This document shows positions 1,088-61,398 of a DNA stretch of 64,000 nt, in pieces (the first letter of the stretch is position 1; the number at the start of each line of letters is the position of its first letter). The notes under the pieces were generated by a model. That model was not told the DNA's origin, ran no database searches, and was given only the letters and a program-made list of their open reading frames with translations. Where the stretch lies: positions 74,913 to 138,912 of the forward strand of contig JAZROY010000004.1 of the NCBI GenBank assembly GCA_045648925.1, in the 5' to 3' direction. The position numbers and the translations under genes are program-made. The stretch comes from Candidatus Enterousia sp. (GTDB taxonomy: Bacteria > Pseudomonadota > Alphaproteobacteria > Rs-D84).

Positions 1088-1218
1088 ATTCCCCGCCCGG
1101 GGCGGGGTGGATTGCTGGAACGACAGAGACAGCAAGACGGGGAGGGTTGAAAATTCATGGTTTGTTTTTTCACAACCCTCCCCACCGCAAGCGGTCCCCC
1201 CCGCCCCAGGCGGGGAAT
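1088..1218. repeat. GC-rich composite palindromic element (three nested or adjacent hairpins), REP/RPE-like
   Basis: ccccgcccggggcgggg (1091-1107), ggggagggttg...caaccctcccc (1139-1183), ccccgccccaggcgggg (1199-1215), flanked by aatatt/aattt. Near-identical modules occur at 15511-15531 and 32674-32765. Confidence 0.65.
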
Positions 1219-2492: not shown

Positions 2493-3377
2493 ATGAACGA
2501 ATTATTAAAAGACATTTTAAAAAACAAAGCCGCGTTATCTAAATTATTAAAAAACAAAGATAACCGGGATGTTTTGTATAACTGGCTGAAAACAGAATTG
2601 GCATATACTTCCAATGCTATCGAAGGCAACACATTAACCCGTCGTGAAACTACATTGGCGATAAACGAAAATATCACCAGCGGTTCAAAACCGATTTCGC
2701 ATTATGTTGAGGCAACAAATCATGCCAAGGCATTTGAGTTGGTTATGGAATTGTCCAAAAAGAAACATATAACAGACAACCGGGATATTTTACAAATTCA
2801 TAAATGTATATTGTCTGGTTTGGATGATGCTAATGCTGGATGTTTCAGACGGGTTTCTGTCCGACTTTCTGGTTCAAGGACGGTGTTACCAAATCCGATT
2901 AAGGTTCCCGACCTTATGGAACAATTCAACCATTGGTTGATAAGTACAGATGAAAACACATTATTCAAAGCGATAAATGCTCACTATCGATTGGTTACAA
3001 TTCATCCGTTCAAAGATGGTAATGGCAGAACGGCACGATTGCTGATGAACCTTATACTGATGCAAAATGGTTTTACACCAACAATCATCAGAAAAATTGA
3101 CCGTAAACGTTATCTGGATGCATTGGAAAAATACCAGACCACGGGCAATGCTGATTCTTATAACCGTTTTATGTTGTCTGCGTTGAATCGTTCTTTGAAA
3201 ATGGCGCTGGATATACTTGATACGAATAAACCAGATACAAAGTTAGTCACTATATCAAAATATGCAAAGATAAAAGGTGTTCCAACATCAACGATTCGTT
3301 ACTGGGTGCAATCTGGCAAGATAAAGCCAACAACATACACAGATGCTGGTTATATGATGTTCGACCCAAACAATTAA
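2493..3377 (+). CDS. Fic-family AMPylase (class II, intramolecular inhibitory helix) with C-terminal HTH domain
   Basis: Fic motif HPFKDGNGRTARLL. N-terminal inhibitory motif TSNAIEGN ((S/T)xxxE(G/N)). C-terminal LVTISKYAKIKGVPTSTIRYWVQSGKI resembles a MerR/excisionase-type HTH. Confidence 0.85.
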   Translation: MNELLKDILKNKAALSKLLKNKDNRDVLYNWLKTELAYTSNAIEGNTLTRRETTLAINENITSGSKPISHYVEATNHAKAFELVMELSKKKHITDNRDILQIHKCILSGLDDANAGCFRRVSVRLSGSRTVLPNPIKVPDLMEQFNHWLISTDENTLFKAINAHYRLVTIHPFKDGNGRTARLLMNLILMQNGFTPTIIRKIDRKRYLDALEKYQTTGNADSYNRFMLSALNRSLKMALDILDTNKPDTKLVTISKYAKIKGVPTSTIRYWVQSGKIKPTTYTDAGYMMFDPNN

Positions 3378-3403
3378 AAAACCGCCGTTTCGGCGGTTTT
3401 TTT
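3376..3403. terminator. Bidirectional rho-independent terminator shared by the fic gene and the convergent M13 peptidase gene
   Basis: aaaaaaccgccgtttcggcggttttttt. Confidence 0.75.
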
Positions 3404-3404
3404 A

Positions 3405-15018: not shown

Positions 15019-15487
15019 TGGTTCCTCCCTTCCAGTCATTTGTTTTATGAGAAAAAATAAACCTTTCATTGTATTTACTGTTGTATTTACAATTTTTTAC
15101 TTTTATTTTTTCCCAGTTGTTATTTTTTCCCAGATTTCCGGTTTTTACCAGATTTCTGGGGGTTTACAGGTTCCTCCACCTTGTCTATACAAACATCTTA
15201 AAACAAAAACGAATCGCGGGTCAAGTATAAATTTTGATTATTTTTAAAAAAATTAAAAAATGGCTGATTTGTAACGGTTTTATCCTCAAATATGCAGGAA
15301 AAGAATTAAAAGTCCCCATCTTTGCTTTTGTGTCATTCCGAGCGAATCGTGGGAATCCATATATACCAAAGTATCAGCAATGCAAAAATATATGGATGCT
15401 CATGCTCGTTCACACTCGCTCAGCATGACCACCTTTCGCTAAAGCTTCGGGTGGCAGGCACAGACACTTTGGGTTGAAAACTTCAAT

Positions 15488-15531
15488 CCTCCCCATTCGC
15501 TTCGCGTCCACCCCGCCCCAGGAGGGGAATT
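15488..15531. repeat. GC-rich palindromic element, partial copy of the 1088-1218 family
   Basis: cctcccc...ccccgccccaggaggggaatt, nearly identical to ccccgccccaggcggggaattt at 1198-1218. Confidence 0.55.
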
Positions 15532-24003: not shown

Positions 24004-24039
24004 TTGTTTTTGCTCCTTTTAAGTCACTAAAAGTGCCTT

Positions 24040-24080
24040 GTGGCCGGCGGGTGATTTTGCTCACCCGATGGCCCGGCCAC
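24040..24080. promoter_or_regulatory. GC-rich bulged hairpin filling the rpoB-rpoC intergenic spacer
   Basis: gtggccggcgggtga-ttttgc-tcacccgatggcccggccac. The right arm abuts the rpoB TAG stop (24080-82), and the rpoC Shine-Dalgarno aaaaggag follows on the mRNA strand. Confidence 0.6.
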
Positions 24081-27000
24081 TAGTCCATTTTTTTCGGGTT
24101 TAACGCCAAACCGAGTCCGCGCAATTCACGCACAAGCACGTTAAATGCTTCTGGTGTTCCCATTTGAATATCGTTGTTTCCAGAAATAATTGCTTCATAC
24201 ATCTTATTTCTTCCAACGATATCGTCAGATTTAACCGTCAACATTTCGCGCAACAGGTGTGCTGCACCGTGTGCTTCCAATGCCCAAACTTCCATTTCTC
24301 CAAGTCGCTGACCACCCATGTGTGCCTTTCCAGACAATGGTTGTTGTGTGACCAGAGAATAATTACCGGTTGAACGTGCATGAATCTTTTCGTCCACCAA
24401 ATGATGCAACTTCATCATATACATCACACCAACAGTCACAGGACGGGCAAATTTTTCACCAGTAACACCATCATACAATGTGAATTGTCCAGATTCTGGT
24501 AATTTAGCCAATTTCAACATTGATTTGATTTCAGCCGGTGTTGCACCATCAAATGTTGGTGTTGCCATTGGAACACCGTCACGCAAAAGTGCTGCCTCTG
24601 CACGAACATCTGTATCTGTCATTTTTTCTAATTTCTCAGCAACTGCTTTGCCATAGATTTTACCCATCACGGCACGCAAATCATCCGTTACTGCACGTTT
24701 CTGTTTTACTTCGTCCAGCACATCACCGATTTGTTTACCCAATGCTCTTGCTGCCATCCCAAGGTGAGTTTCAAATATCTGACCGATATTCATACGGCTT
24801 GGCACACCCAATGGATTCAAAACGATATCAACAGGTGTTCCATCTTCCATATGTGGCATATCTTCGATTGGAACAACACGAGATACAATACCTTTGTTTC
24901 CGTGACGACCAGCCATTTTATCACCAGGCTGCAGTTTCATTTTATGTGCGATATACACTTTGACTTCTTTTAAAACGCCCGCAGCCAAAGATGTGCTTTC
25001 GGTTGCCTTGGCAATTTCAGCATCAGCACGTTCGTTCAATTCTTGCAATTTCAAAACATGTTGTTCACGCAATTCATCAATCTTTGATTGAATTTCCTTA
25101 TTAGAAACAACCAGTTTTTTCATGTCAGACGCACGAATACCTTCGAATACTTCGGCGGTTAATTTCTTACCAATAAATGGTTTCAAACTACCGGTTCCTG
25201 CGGAAACAGTTGCGTTTTCAGCCAATTGGAATATTTGATCTGCAAAACCTTTTTCAACAATAGCTGTTTCTTCATCACGATCTTTGTTGATTTTTTCAAT
25301 TTTTTGCAATTCAATCATCTGTGTTCTTTCGTCTTTTTTGACACCATGTCTTGTCAAAACATTAACACCGATAACAGTTCCTTCTTCGTTTGGCCCGACC
25401 TTTAACGAAGTGTCTTTGACATTCAATGCCTTTTCACCAAAGATGTTACGCAACAATGCTTCTTCTGGGGTCAATAATGTTTCAGATTTTGGCGAAACAC
25501 GACCAACCAAAATATCACCCTGCTTTACGCGCGCACCAACATAAATCATACCAGATTCATCCAAATTTTTAAGTGCTTCTTCACCAACATTTGGAATGTC
25601 ACGGGTAAAACTTTCTGGTCCCAATTGTGTATCACGCAATTTGATTTCTTTTTCAACAATCTTGATAGATGTGTAAACATCATCACGAGAAATGCGTTCA
25701 GAAATCACAATAGCATCTTCATAGTTATATCCACGCCATGGCACAAAAGCAACCAAGACATTGCGACCCAATGCCAATTCACCATAATTCATTGATGAAC
25801 CGTCTGCGATGATATCACCTGCGGAAATTCTGTCGCCAACATGAACAAGCGGTTTTTGATGAACCAATGTTTCACCGTTCGAACGACCAAATTTTTCAAG
25901 GTTGTAAATATCAACACCTGTCACAACATTACGTGAATTCATACATTTAACCACAATACGATTTGCATCAACAGATTCAACGATACCGCTGTGTTTTGCA
26001 ACCTTACCTGTTCTTGAATCACGCGCAACTTCGCGTTCGATACCGGTTCCAACCAATGGTGCTTCTACACGCATCAATGGGACACCTTGACGTTGCATGT
26101 TTGAACCCATCAAAGCACGGTTCGCGTCATCGTTCGCAACAAATGGAATTAATCCAGTTGCAATGGACACAACCTGACGAGGTGCCACGTCAATTAAATC
26201 AATTTCGCCCTTTGGCACCATAACGAATTCGCCATCTACACGCGCAGTTACCATATCTTCTGCCAAAACACCAGATGAAGTTGTTGGTGTGTTCCCTTGG
26301 GCAATTTTGTGACCCAATTCTTCATCAGCAGTTAAATACACCATTTCATCTGTGATTTTACTGTTTTTAACAACATAGTATGGTGTTTCAATAAATCCGT
26401 ATGGATTAACACGTGCATATGCAGACAAGTGTGAAATCAAACCAATATTTGCACCTTCGGGTGTATGAATTGGACACAATCTTCCATAGTGCGTTGGATG
26501 CACGTCACGTACATCAATCCCAGCGCGTTCACGATTCAATCCACCAGGCCCCAATGCAGATACAAGACGTTTATGTTCAACCTCTGCCAATGGGTTATAA
26601 GAATCCATAAACTGAGATAATTGTGAAGTTCCCAAGAATTCAGAAACCAAAGACATCAATGGTTTTGCATTGATAACATCTTGGGGTTGCATAGTTGCAA
26701 TATTTGGCGAAGTCAAACTTTCACGAACCAATCTTTCAATACGCAACATACCTGTGCGGAAAGTTTGTTCAAACAATTCACCAACTGCACGTACACGACG
26801 ATTAGACAAATTATCAATATCATCGATTACATCTTTGTGATCGATGATGTTTGTCAATGTCTTTAACACAGCCAGGAAATCTGCCTTGGTCAAAGTGCGT
26901 TCATCTTCTGGTTTTTTGCCAGAATCTATTTTCAAACGTTTGTTCATTTTGAAACGACCAACCGCAGACAAATCGTAATACGCAGGGTCAAAACCTTGAC

Positions 27001-31703: not shown

Positions 31704-32570
31704 TTATTGCACACTGAAAAATGGTGCACGAAAACCATCAGAATAAGAATGAAGATAACTAGAACAAGACGCAGCGCAATTGGCTAGGCACTCCTGTGTA
31801 TCATTATCATACCCTGTTGGATGTAACACCCACACAGAACCAGATAATACGCACGATGGACCACCATTTGACGTATAATTGGTTGCCTTGCACCAACAAT
31901 ATTCTCCATCTTGCGTCGAAGTTATTTCACTGTCTGTCGCTGTCCAATTTGAACTGTTATTATCGTATGCACCATCATTAGTATTCCCCGCTTTGGTACT
32001 GCATTTTGAAATACCTTTTATCGTACCATAATTAAATCCTATTGCCCATTCACCGGCACTAAAGCCATCAAAATAACTATCGCTACAATCATTACTGCCT
32101 ACCTCTGTATCATTGTTCCAATAGCTACACAGGTATTGCCAATTCCATTGGACAGAGTAGTTCATACCAAGTTCCCATATTCCTTCTATTGTTGCATCCA
32201 AACTTGATAAACTGCATTGTTGTACCTGTTGACCAGCACCAGCTTGTCTTACCCGCCAGCCCTTAAATGTATATCCTGTTTTTGTCGGTATTGTTGATGG
32301 TGGGGTTAATGTTCCGTCATATACGCAACTTTGTGATACACTTGGCACATTTTGTATTTCCGTGTCACCATTATACCAATGAAGTTGTATTGTGTTTGCC
32401 TGCCAATTTGCTTGCAGGTTTGATGTGCCAGAATATGTTTGTAATGGATTATTTCTACAATTCGCTGTGGATGCACTTGATGGGATATCTGGGTCGGCAA
32501 AACTTGGGGCGGAAAAAATAAAAGAAATTGCAAAACAAATCGTTCCGATTTGTTTTATGCTTAGCAACAA
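31704..32570 (-). CDS. Cys-rich secreted protein with a (CA)16 tract in its 5' region. Probable phase-variable surface or secreted protein. Contains a GYTFKGW motif reminiscent of Listeria-Bacteroides (Flg_new) repeats
   Basis: The ORF track starts at TTG 32570 with no Shine-Dalgarno. The hydrophobic signal-peptide core is SLLLSIKQIGTICFAISFIFSAPSFA. The only Shine-Dalgarno plus ATG (aaaggagaaataaaATG, ATG 32641-32639) is upstream of the repeat and currently out of frame. Confidence 0.6.
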   Translation of the reverse strand: MLLSIKQIGTICFAISFIFSAPSFADPDIPSSASTANCRNNPLQTYSGTSNLQANWQANTIQLHWYNGDTEIQNVPSVSQSCVYDGTLTPPSTIPTKTGYTFKGWRVRQAGAGQQVQQCSLSSLDATIEGIWELGMNYSVQWNWQYLCSYWNNDTEVGSNDCSDSYFDGFSAGEWAIGFNYGTIKGISKCSTKAGNTNDGAYDNNSSNWTATDSEITSTQDGEYCWCKATNYTSNGGPSCVLSGSVWVLHPTGYDNDTQECLANCAASCSSYLHSYSDGFRAPFFSVQ

Positions 32571-32572
32571 AC

Positions 32573-32611
<39 letters not shown>

Positions 32612-32673: not shown

Positions 32674-32765
32674 TTCCCCGCCCGGGGCGGGGGGGACCAC
32701 GAAGTGGTGGGGAGGGTTCACCCCCCTCCCCGACTTCGTCGGTACTCCCCCACTGGGGGGAGAAT
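32674..32765. repeat. GC-rich composite palindromic element (same family as 1088-1218)
   Basis: ttccccgcccggggcggggg, then nested gaccacgaagt...acttcgtcggtac and ggggaggg...ccctcccc, then ctcccccactggggggag. Confidence 0.65.
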
Positions 32766-32823: not shown

Positions 32824-32958
32824 TTCCCCTCTATGGAGGGGCCTGTCCACAGTAGCCTTTGGCGAAGGCGGATGGCGCGAAGCGACGGGGTGGTTTACAT
32901 AAAAACGAATTATCTGACCACCTCCCCGGCTCCGCCGGTACTCCTCCAACGGAGGAGA
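32824..32958. repeat. Second GC-rich hairpin cluster in the same divergent intergenic region
   Basis: cccctctatggagggg, ccggctccgccgg and ctcctccaacggaggag hairpins. Confidence 0.55.
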
Positions 32959-33037
32959 ACTGTTTTTGCAGGGAATTATTATCGTTTTTGATTTAAAAAT
33001 TTTTATGTAATTTTTTACTTGCGCTTGATAAATAAAA

Positions 33038-61135: not shown

Positions 61136-61398
61136 ATTCCATCCTTTGGTTCTCATTTATGTTAACCAAGAAACTAGGTATTTGCAATATCAATTATTAG
61201 TACTTTACATAAATTCTCTGGAATGCGCACGAGACCTTGATAAACAATAACCAACCGCTGGGCAAAAACTCTATTAAAAATATCCGTTTTTGCACGGTTG
61301 CTAATTGTTCATCTGCGTATTCGCCATGCGCTTCGCTCTGGCGTATCCGTGCGCCCAGGAATAAATAAAAACACCCAAAAGGGTGTTTTTGTTTATTC

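Follow-up and report, generated by a model that had tools for sequence, protein, structure and literature searches.

GC-rich nested hairpins in a relative of Candidatus Enterousia are probably miniature copies of a mobile element associated with a DUF559 endonuclease

We asked what the GC-rich nested hairpins are that recur between the genes of contig JAZROY010000004.1 (assembly GCA_045648925.1, positions 74,913 to 138,912 of the forward strand), a stretch of 64,000 nt that we call the window. The window organism is a rumen alphaproteobacterium and kin of Candidatus Enterousia; its order, Rs-D84, has genomes of less than 1 Mb (PMC12306168). A sequence-only reading had taken the hairpins for selfish palindromes of the kind of repetitive extragenic palindromes (REPs) or Rickettsia palindromic elements (RPEs). 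Our analysis led to a different assignment. With a probability that we put at about 0.6, the window elements are non-autonomous copies, similar to miniature inverted-repeat transposable elements (MITEs), of a nested-palindrome mobile element that is associated with a DUF559 endonuclease and occurs in gut and rumen Alphaproteobacteria near Candidatus Enterousia. What appears to be new, judged from sequence, is the pairing of a DUF559 nuclease gene with hairpin-armed palindromic repeats, for which we found no published description; the literature on DUF559, PF04480, COG2852 or Vsr-like proteins with palindromes and that on Enterousia yielded no account of such elements.

The sequences quoted in the sequence-only reading are all present where it had placed them, and we refined the element ends relative to its coordinates. 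It had listed copies at four loci: three of these proved to be complete nested-hairpin elements, while the copy at 15.5 kb is just a single, decayed right arm. The features are as follows (H1 and H2, hairpins of the left arm; H1' and H2', those of the right arm).

1089-1217, + strand: element 1, complete, without an open reading frame (ORF), MITE-like.
Element 1, left arm: TT at 1089-1090; H1, CCCCGCC-CGG-GGCGGGG, at 1091-1107; H2, tggaTTGCTG...CAGCAAgac, at 1108-1138.
Element 1, centre: inner box GGGGAGGGTTG at 1139-1149; a 23-nt AT-rich loop at 1150-1172; CAACCCTCCCC at 1173-1183.
Element 1, right arm: H2', accgcaagcggtccc, at 1184-1198; H1', CCCCGCC-CCA-GGCGGGG, at 1199-1215; AA at 1216-1217.
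32674-32764, + strand: element 2, complete, ORF-less, with unlike ends.
Element 2, left part: TT and H1 at 32676-32692; H2, gggACCACgaaGTGGT, at 32693-32708.
Element 2, inner hairpin: GGGGAGGG-ttcaccc-CCCTCCCC at 32709-32731.
Element 2, right part: H2', gacttcgtcggta, at 32732-32744; terminal hairpin CTCCCCC-actg-GGGGGAG at 32745-32762; AA.
32824-32959, + strand: element 3, complete, ORF-less, of a related subfamily.
Element 3, left part: TT and CCCCTC-tatg-GAGGGG at 32826-32841; an extra nested module, cctgtccacagtagcctttggcgaaggcgga; H2, tGGCGCgaaGCGAC.
Element 3, centre and right: GGGGTGGT...ACCACCTCCCC around an AT-rich loop; ccggctccgccgg; terminal hairpin CTCCTCC-aac-GGAGGAG at 32941-32957; AA.
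32966-32977, + strand: remnant of a solo terminal hairpin, gcaGGGAAtt, recognised from a four-way alignment.
15471-15529, + strand: decaying right arm made of GGGTTgaaaacttcAAtCC, tCCCC, attcgcttcgcgtcca and CCCCGCC-CCA-GGaGGGG with AA; in the window strain a C-to-A change breaks the stem of its terminal hairpin.

Complete copies follow one order, namely (A/G)TT, H1, H2, a G-rich inner box, an AT-rich loop, a complementary C-rich box, H2', H1' and AA(T/C). A full-length arm consists of three parts: TT with a terminal GC hairpin (TTCCCCGCC-YGG-GGCGGGG), a small variable hairpin, and the inner G-rich box GGGGAGGGTTG. Because the halves are inverted repeats of each other and each half also contains self-complementary hairpins, an element can fold as local hairpins or as one long stem. 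Over all the DNA fetched there were 55 arms with 31 distinct H2 sequences, and all but the two shortest of these (5 and 7 nt) fold as hairpins. The list of variants contains many paired changes in the H2 stem (GGCAC/GTGCC, GTCAC/GTGAC, ACCGC/GCGGT, ACCAC/GTGGT and TTGTGAC/GTCACAA), suggesting that hairpin formation is kept while the sequence drifts. The H2 loops are mostly GAA or GCA triloops; d(C-GAA-G) is an unusually stable DNA mini-hairpin and a known DNA-stability motif.

Several measures set the elements apart from their surroundings. Their GC content is 62.8% for element 1, 72.5% for element 2, 58.8% for element 3 and 61.1% for the relic at 15.5 kb, so the contrast described earlier holds for the elements (59-73%), but the background is 37.6% over the whole window rather than the estimated 35% or so. 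When CCCCGCCCNNGGCGGGG was searched with up to two mismatches, four sites were found in the window (1091-1107, 1199-1215, 15511-15527 and 32676-32692) and none in 100 shuffles. GGGGAGGGTT by itself was weakly over-represented, with 4 matches against 1.4 expected. A generic scan for ends (TT followed by a C-rich hairpin, or a hairpin followed by AA) gave 7 in the window compared with 0.7 in Markov controls; six of them fell within the four loci already named, and the seventh (19386, within a gene) looks like a chance match. Element 1 folded far better than its shuffles (z = -8.1 with RNA parameters, -8.8 with DNA parameters) and elements 2 and 3 did so with z from -2.8 to -4.9 (RNA or DNA parameters), the excess stability being alike on both strands.

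In agreement with the sequence-only reading, all four loci are intergenic. The HU gene (748-1038) precedes element 1. Elements 2 and 3 share a spacer flanked by two divergent genes, a surface-protein-like gene on the minus strand (31704-32570) and virB8 (from 33038), and the relic occupies the spacer between 15069 and 15654. Rfam 15 was run over the window and only tRNAs reached the gathering score; permissive scans of the three element regions returned spurious miRNA-type matches, and ARAGORN found no known RNA at the elements. Pfam scans of those window ORFs that have no annotation through relatives detected no transposase, REP-associated tyrosine transposase (RAYT) or DUF559 protein, and tblastn with a DUF559 protein had no match in the window.

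Longer forms of the element were found in related genomes (loci fetched for comparison are given by L numbers). L051, L053, L072 and L088 each carry a left arm, a promoter-like TTGAAC-17-TATAAT, a 115-aa ORF and a right arm. The ORF belongs to DUF559 (Pfam E = 1.8e-28), and its closest solved structure is 3HRL (E = 1.6e-17), an uncharacterised endonuclease-like protein of N. gonorrhoeae. The four proteins are 79-83% identical to one another and the candidate catalytic residues D51, E62, D64 and H68 are invariant in all of them. A series of deletions leads from these forms towards those of the window. L079, at another locus of the same metagenome-assembled genome (MAG) as L051, is the L051 element minus 182 bp internally, and the identity between the two begins exactly at TTCCCCGCC and stops at GGCGGGGAA. 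L021 and L091 have kept just the last ~18 codons of the ORF. Element 1 has no ORF codons left, and over 45-46 nt its right arm shows 100% identity to the right arm of the DUF559 elements of L072 and L136. Full-length and ORF-less copies would thus relate to each other as a putative autonomous element to its miniature derivatives.

This relationship is that of bacterial MITEs such as the Correia elements of Neisseria, which are likewise short, non-autonomous, dispersed and strain-polymorphic, have terminal inverted repeats and can affect transcription. The window copies derive from the longer form by internal deletion and have the terminal inverted repeats in common with it. In contrast to MITEs, the sole ORF of the longer form is a DUF559 nuclease and no recognised transposase, and no transposase activity is on record for DUF559. 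Moreover, target duplications are not of fixed length and are sometimes 44-55 bp, the ends are themselves hairpins, and the modules nest. Several DUF559 copies in the JAZROL MAG (L088, L096 and L103) may represent one locus split by strain variation and were not counted as multiple copies.

In a reverse test, metagenome contigs were searched by DUF559 protein similarity, that is, independently of the DNA motif. This gave 80 loci with 74 testable genes, 44 of which were flanked by inverted repeats that exceeded the 95th percentile of controls matched for position (about 4 expected). The sequence of the arms varied between DUF559 subfamilies, and their layout held throughout genomes with a GC content of 30-55%: ATT came first, then a C-rich/G-rich hairpin, often followed by a small hairpin with a GAA loop, and last a (T)AGGGGGTGTG-type box next to the ORF. 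The reverse test therefore shows that a small DUF559 gene with hairpin arms is a general pairing, and the arms appear to track the nuclease subfamily. Relatives of the subfamily are numerous, with 1358 proteins at E <= 1e-20 and, at 69-100% identity, over 120 clusters, for the most part on short contigs.

DUF559 and Vsr proteins form one clade of PD-(D/E)XK nucleases, which has a homing endonuclease among its members (PMC3424549). The enclosed ORF shares this clade with E. coli Vsr, I-Bth0305I and Caulobacter VsrA but, unlike these, it is not in an intron or intein, is not beside a methyltransferase gene, and has inverted hairpin repeats on both sides. Homing of the classical type, to one target, is not apparent, as the nuclease ORF stands at several unrelated sites (L051, L053, L072, L079 and L128). 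Functional data on DUF559 proteins were found for Caulobacter VsrA alone, which triggers the SOS response once the cytosine methyltransferase is deleted and damages DNA in vivo (PMC12907096). A 'DUF559 domain-containing protein' is also enriched, with an odds ratio of 14, among predicted inversion targets, uncommented in that study (PMC9881135). A CCWGG-type Vsr site, suggested by a C/T difference in the H1 loop, was dropped since loops also read CAG, CTG and TTG.

The DUF559 element at L072/P0001 has a gene on either side; the two genes are convergent paralogues and agree in all of their last 87 nt. We considered whether the perfect inverted flanks of L072 were an assembly artefact and rejected this, because the convergent paralogous genes are real and occur in independent assemblies as well. 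Comparison of L223 (1811-3616) with L224 (also L225-L227 and L072), from independent rumen assemblies, revealed a 1.8-kb inversion centred on the DUF559 element. It is bounded by 133-bp inverted repeats in the convergent paralogous genes, which encode an 890-930-aa protein and a 169-209-aa partial copy, and the large protein would have its C-terminal part exchanged.

The window loci themselves differ between strains. In more distant relatives the virB8 intergenic region is ~205 bp long and has no GC element. A four-way alignment showed that the site of element 2 is empty in L049 (MAG RUG11635; neighbouring DNA 91.8% identical). In L004 the site is filled by another hairpin module, of 34 nt, between the two copies of an 8-bp direct repeat (CCTTTCTT) that is single in L049. 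A small module of the L004 kind is nested in window element 3, between H1 and H2, and L004 has such a module both nested and free-standing. In L049, element 3 is without the nested module and its H2 is a compensated variant, tGGTGCgaaGCACC; in L008 and L009 the right half of element 3 is missing. L049 has the solo hairpin downstream of element 3 in intact form (aTTCCCCGCCTGGGGCGGGGAAtt); it carries mutations in L004, L008 and L009, and the window keeps just the remnant. Flank-to-flank BLAST over all fetched loci returned mostly filled orthologues or array-length variants; the one clean filled/empty pair, L049 versus L004, came from the four-way alignment.

At the HU locus, the segment 1039-3384 (2.3 kb, with element 1 at its left edge) is absent from L001 and L002, where the HU stop codon is directly followed by a canonical terminator equal to 3385-3404 of the window. 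Around this junction L002 differs from the window by 1 base in 340 (99.7% identity). The 15.5-kb arm is present at the same place in five other strains with an intact CCCCGCCCC(C)AGGCGGGG, and this copy is therefore fixed and old. Judged by the empty site, the other module, the nested gain, the truncation and the hairpin loss, these elements are not conserved terminators, which stand separately in canonical form; the earlier proposal of a mobile modular repeat is upheld.

Segment 1039-3384 has features of its own. It lies between the HU stop codon and the terminator, in place of 8 bp (tgttattt) of L001 and L002, and carries three genes. Two of them (1578-1958 and 1993-2340) encode small secreted proteins that contain Cys and are paralogous, and the third (2493-3377) encodes a protein with Fic/DOC and MerR helix-turn-helix domains. 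We found no record elsewhere of these three proteins, and no strain with the segment but without element 1. Parts of the segment (1316-1551 and 2247-2340) are ~75-79% identical to the Enterousia locus L097, which also has an arm nearby. Upstream of the first small secreted-protein gene, at 1445-1533 on the + strand, there is a sub-threshold Rfam match to sRNA-Xcc1 (E = 2.4e-5; 39.1 bits, where the gathering score is 53), and ~250 nt around it are conserved in L097.

Beyond the window, a scan with TTCCCCKCCYGGGGCGGGG in one genome per species gave at least 113 stretches. Many of the matches listed were chance occurrences in high-GC actinomycetes, but at least 40 were low-GC loci, mostly from Candidatus Enterousia or from gut or rumen alphaproteobacterial MAGs, and the sources of the relatives are rumen and gut metagenomes. 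Among the same matches the family is enriched in related genomes, the exact 19-mer occurring several times per MAG in at least three Enterousia-like MAGs. These relatives are at varying distance, with L107 (Enterousia) ~76% identical to window DNA. The combination of left and right arms seen in element 2 recurs in L064, L066, L076 and L121, and solo hairpins occur in L049, L062, L099 and L104. A tRNA gene of the unrelated MAG 'bacterium FK3.bin69' also has the exact terminal hairpin, TTCCCCGCCTGGGGCGGGG, directly upstream of it (L077:5484-5600).

How might such an element move? At three independent loci (L051/L131, L079 and L128) it is flanked by direct repeats of 44-55 bp, which comprise the last codons and the stop codon of the neighbouring gene; the gene-distal copy is drifting, and the gene's terminator comes after it. 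Such an arrangement looks like a long duplication of the target immediately before the terminator, with the gene left intact. Other copies have flanking repeats of 8 bp (the L004 module) or nothing obvious, and canonical terminators of a hairpin and a T-run adjoin elements. A role of the nuclease in mobility is what we infer from these associations. Supplied in trans, the DUF559 nuclease would nick or cut at or near the hairpin arms or the targets, the hairpins serving as DNA recognition structures in cruciform or single-stranded form, and host repair or replication would then copy the element in. Insertion would sometimes duplicate 44-55 bp of the target, typically a gene 3' end just upstream of the terminator, and as the duplication covers that 3' end the gene would stay intact. 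Recombination between the self-similar arms could remove the interior, and internal deletions that take out the DUF559 gene would leave arm-loop-arm units such as those of the window. Copying repair of breaks or nicks at hairpin-forming DNA would fit the variable duplications, nested modules, hybrids of unlike arms and solo hairpins.

A number of points weigh against this account. Mobilisation in trans has to be assumed for the window genome, since neither a DUF559 gene nor a transposase is present in the 64 kb. DUF559 proteins are not known to act biochemically on such arms, and the window copies show no clear target duplication. The flanking repeats are inconsistent (none, 8, 28 or 44-55 bp), which does not fit the mechanism of any one transposase of the classical kind. 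The palindromes could have existed first, with the DUF559 gene as a passenger that inserts into them or is insulated by them. Evidence for multiple ORF-bearing copies within one genome comes mainly from one MAG (L051 and L079), and movement must be rare, because identical DUF559 proteins were found at one genomic context each over many samples. Copy-number estimates are biased, as the loci used were picked by motif. A wider proposition, which we regard as tentative and as somewhat less probable than its opposite, is that small stand-alone DUF559 (PF04480) proteins in general serve as the nucleases in a class of prokaryotic mobile elements that is widespread and so far undescribed, with multi-hairpin arms, MITE-like offspring, insertion by gene 3' ends or terminators, long variable duplications, and local inversions and gene conversion.

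Alternatively, the palindromes might spread without a dedicated enzyme, through replication stalling, template switching and ectopic recombination, with DUF559 a separate selfish or repair gene that landed or was retained inside them. A parallel exists in the GC clusters of yeast mitochondrial DNA, which are short, GC-rich, palindromic modules in AT-rich intergenic DNA, modular, arranged in arrays and strain-polymorphic, and for which spread by template switching or ectopic recombination has been proposed; here, however, the host is bacterial, no sequence relation exists, and a specific nuclease gene lies within the arms. Duplications of such different lengths suit errors of repair or replication better than a fixed staggered cut, the modules nest in one another and recombine to hybrids, most copies are ORF-less with the nuclease gene missing from the window, and the 1.8-kb inversion between inverted repeats shows ordinary recombination at work around a DUF559 element. 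We nevertheless consider this explanation unlikely: arm layout co-varies with the DUF559 subfamily over distant taxa while the order of parts stays the same, which is unexpected for a passenger gene, copies at different loci have sharp ends in common (L051/L079), and the inner box always abuts the ORF. Less probable still is that the elements are immobile and kept for a function in the host, as bidirectional terminators, insulators, mRNA-stabilising hairpins or small RNAs. Every end is terminator-like by score (element 1 in both directions, and the 3' hairpins of elements 2 and 3 are followed by T-runs), the structure is strongly conserved by compensatory changes, and element 1 comes after the HU gene. 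Between divergent genes, though, elements 2 and 3 have nothing to terminate, and close strains are without them or have other elements with the neighbouring genes unchanged. Relatives end the HU gene with a canonical terminator which is still there downstream in the window (3385-3404); there was no Rfam match, the structure is equally good on both strands, and triloops of the d(C-GAA-G) type are a motif of DNA stability. As each end is a GC hairpin followed by A/T-rich DNA, incidental termination or insulation of transcription is possible, and such a side effect is plausible.

The resemblance to REPs claimed at the outset deserves separate treatment, because REP doublets forming hairpins (REPINs) and their RAYTs come closest in architecture and likewise have a gene that the repeats flank. 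Both systems have intergenic, inverted palindromic units, many gene-less copies, few copies of a small repeat-flanked gene, and persistence that is apparently largely vertical. The dispersed, modular and selfish or mobile character ascribed to the window elements stands, but membership of either the REP or the RPE group does not. A REP is defined as an imperfect palindrome of 20-40 bp, one end of which carries an unpaired tag, GTAG or CGTC (TGTC/CCTC) (PMC3733652). GTAG and CGTC tags and the CCA tail are absent from all 41 distinct arms, in which (A/G)TT comes before the terminal hairpin and AA(T/C) after it. That a RAYT encoded elsewhere in the genome moves the elements as REPINs is accordingly very improbable, even though paired inverted units, each palindromic, forming one long hairpin and lying between genes in many copies, are what two papers on REPINs describe (PMC3116915, PMC3337134). 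The arms here are three-part (~45-60 nt), very GC-rich and untagged, no Y1 transposase or RAYT was found among window proteins scanned or annotated in relatives, and the gene that the arms flank in related loci encodes a DUF559 PD-(D/E)XK nuclease instead of an HUH/Y1 transposase. That the gene-bearing form has internal-deletion derivatives points to a relationship of the insertion sequence/MITE type. We give least credence of all to homology with RPEs. The host is indeed an alphaproteobacterium with a reduced genome and the palindromic repeats are ~90-135 bp long, but RPEs typically lie in-frame in genes and some of them are REPs of the CGTC type, namely RPE-4 and RPE-6 (PMC3733652). The window copies are intergenic, untagged and strongly GC-rich, and their full-length relatives carry an ORF, so it is by features that the two are set apart. 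For copies at other loci, stop-free spans are no guide to a position inside genes, as GC-rich DNA tends to be without stop codons anyway.

If our interpretation as DUF559-associated mobile elements is correct, the large DUF559 family, whose function is unknown and for which a Vsr-like repair role has been the sole lead so far, would gain a biological context and a testable substrate. It would also explain the enrichment of DUF559 genes near predicted inversions (PMC9881135). Genomes of gut Alphaproteobacteria of less than 1 Mb would still be carrying actively remodelling repeat families, and such repeats would break assemblies and cause promoter and terminator regions to differ between strains. 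With recognition of structured GC-rich DNA, the 115-aa nuclease would also be a possible reagent.

The window contains further repeats and hairpins besides these elements. At 455-575, next to tRNA-Arg (580-655), a 28-bp direct repeat, tgtgcgctttgcgcgcaataacgaaaa, stands around a 65-nt insert (54% GC), in identical form in L002; it is the same signature of a long flanking duplication as around some DUF559 elements, with a different insert. At 61316-61347, adjoining tRNA-Gln, we found GCGTATTCGCCATGCGCTTCGCTCTGGCGTAT, whose 22-mer recurs exactly beside hairpin elements in the Enterousia loci L039 and L063, and which is another small repeated module. The sequence at 15332-15358, GTCATTCCGAGCGAATCGTGGGAATCC, with T before and A after it, resembles a degenerate CGTC/TGTC-tagged REP, a superfamily that takes in RPE-4 and RPE-6; it has one copy in the window and is kept in five strains. 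In the rpoB-rpoC spacer (24033-24086) there is a GC-rich imperfect hairpin, gtggccggCGGGTG...CACCCGatggcccggccac, that is outside the repeat family. Finally, a perfect (TG)16.5 microsatellite at 32577-32609 lies directly upstream of the start of the minus-strand gene 31704-32570, which encodes a Listeria-Bacteroides repeat protein. The length of the tract varies between strains, with ~10 units in L049 and ~7 in L004, making it a candidate switch for phase variation by slipped-strand mispairing.

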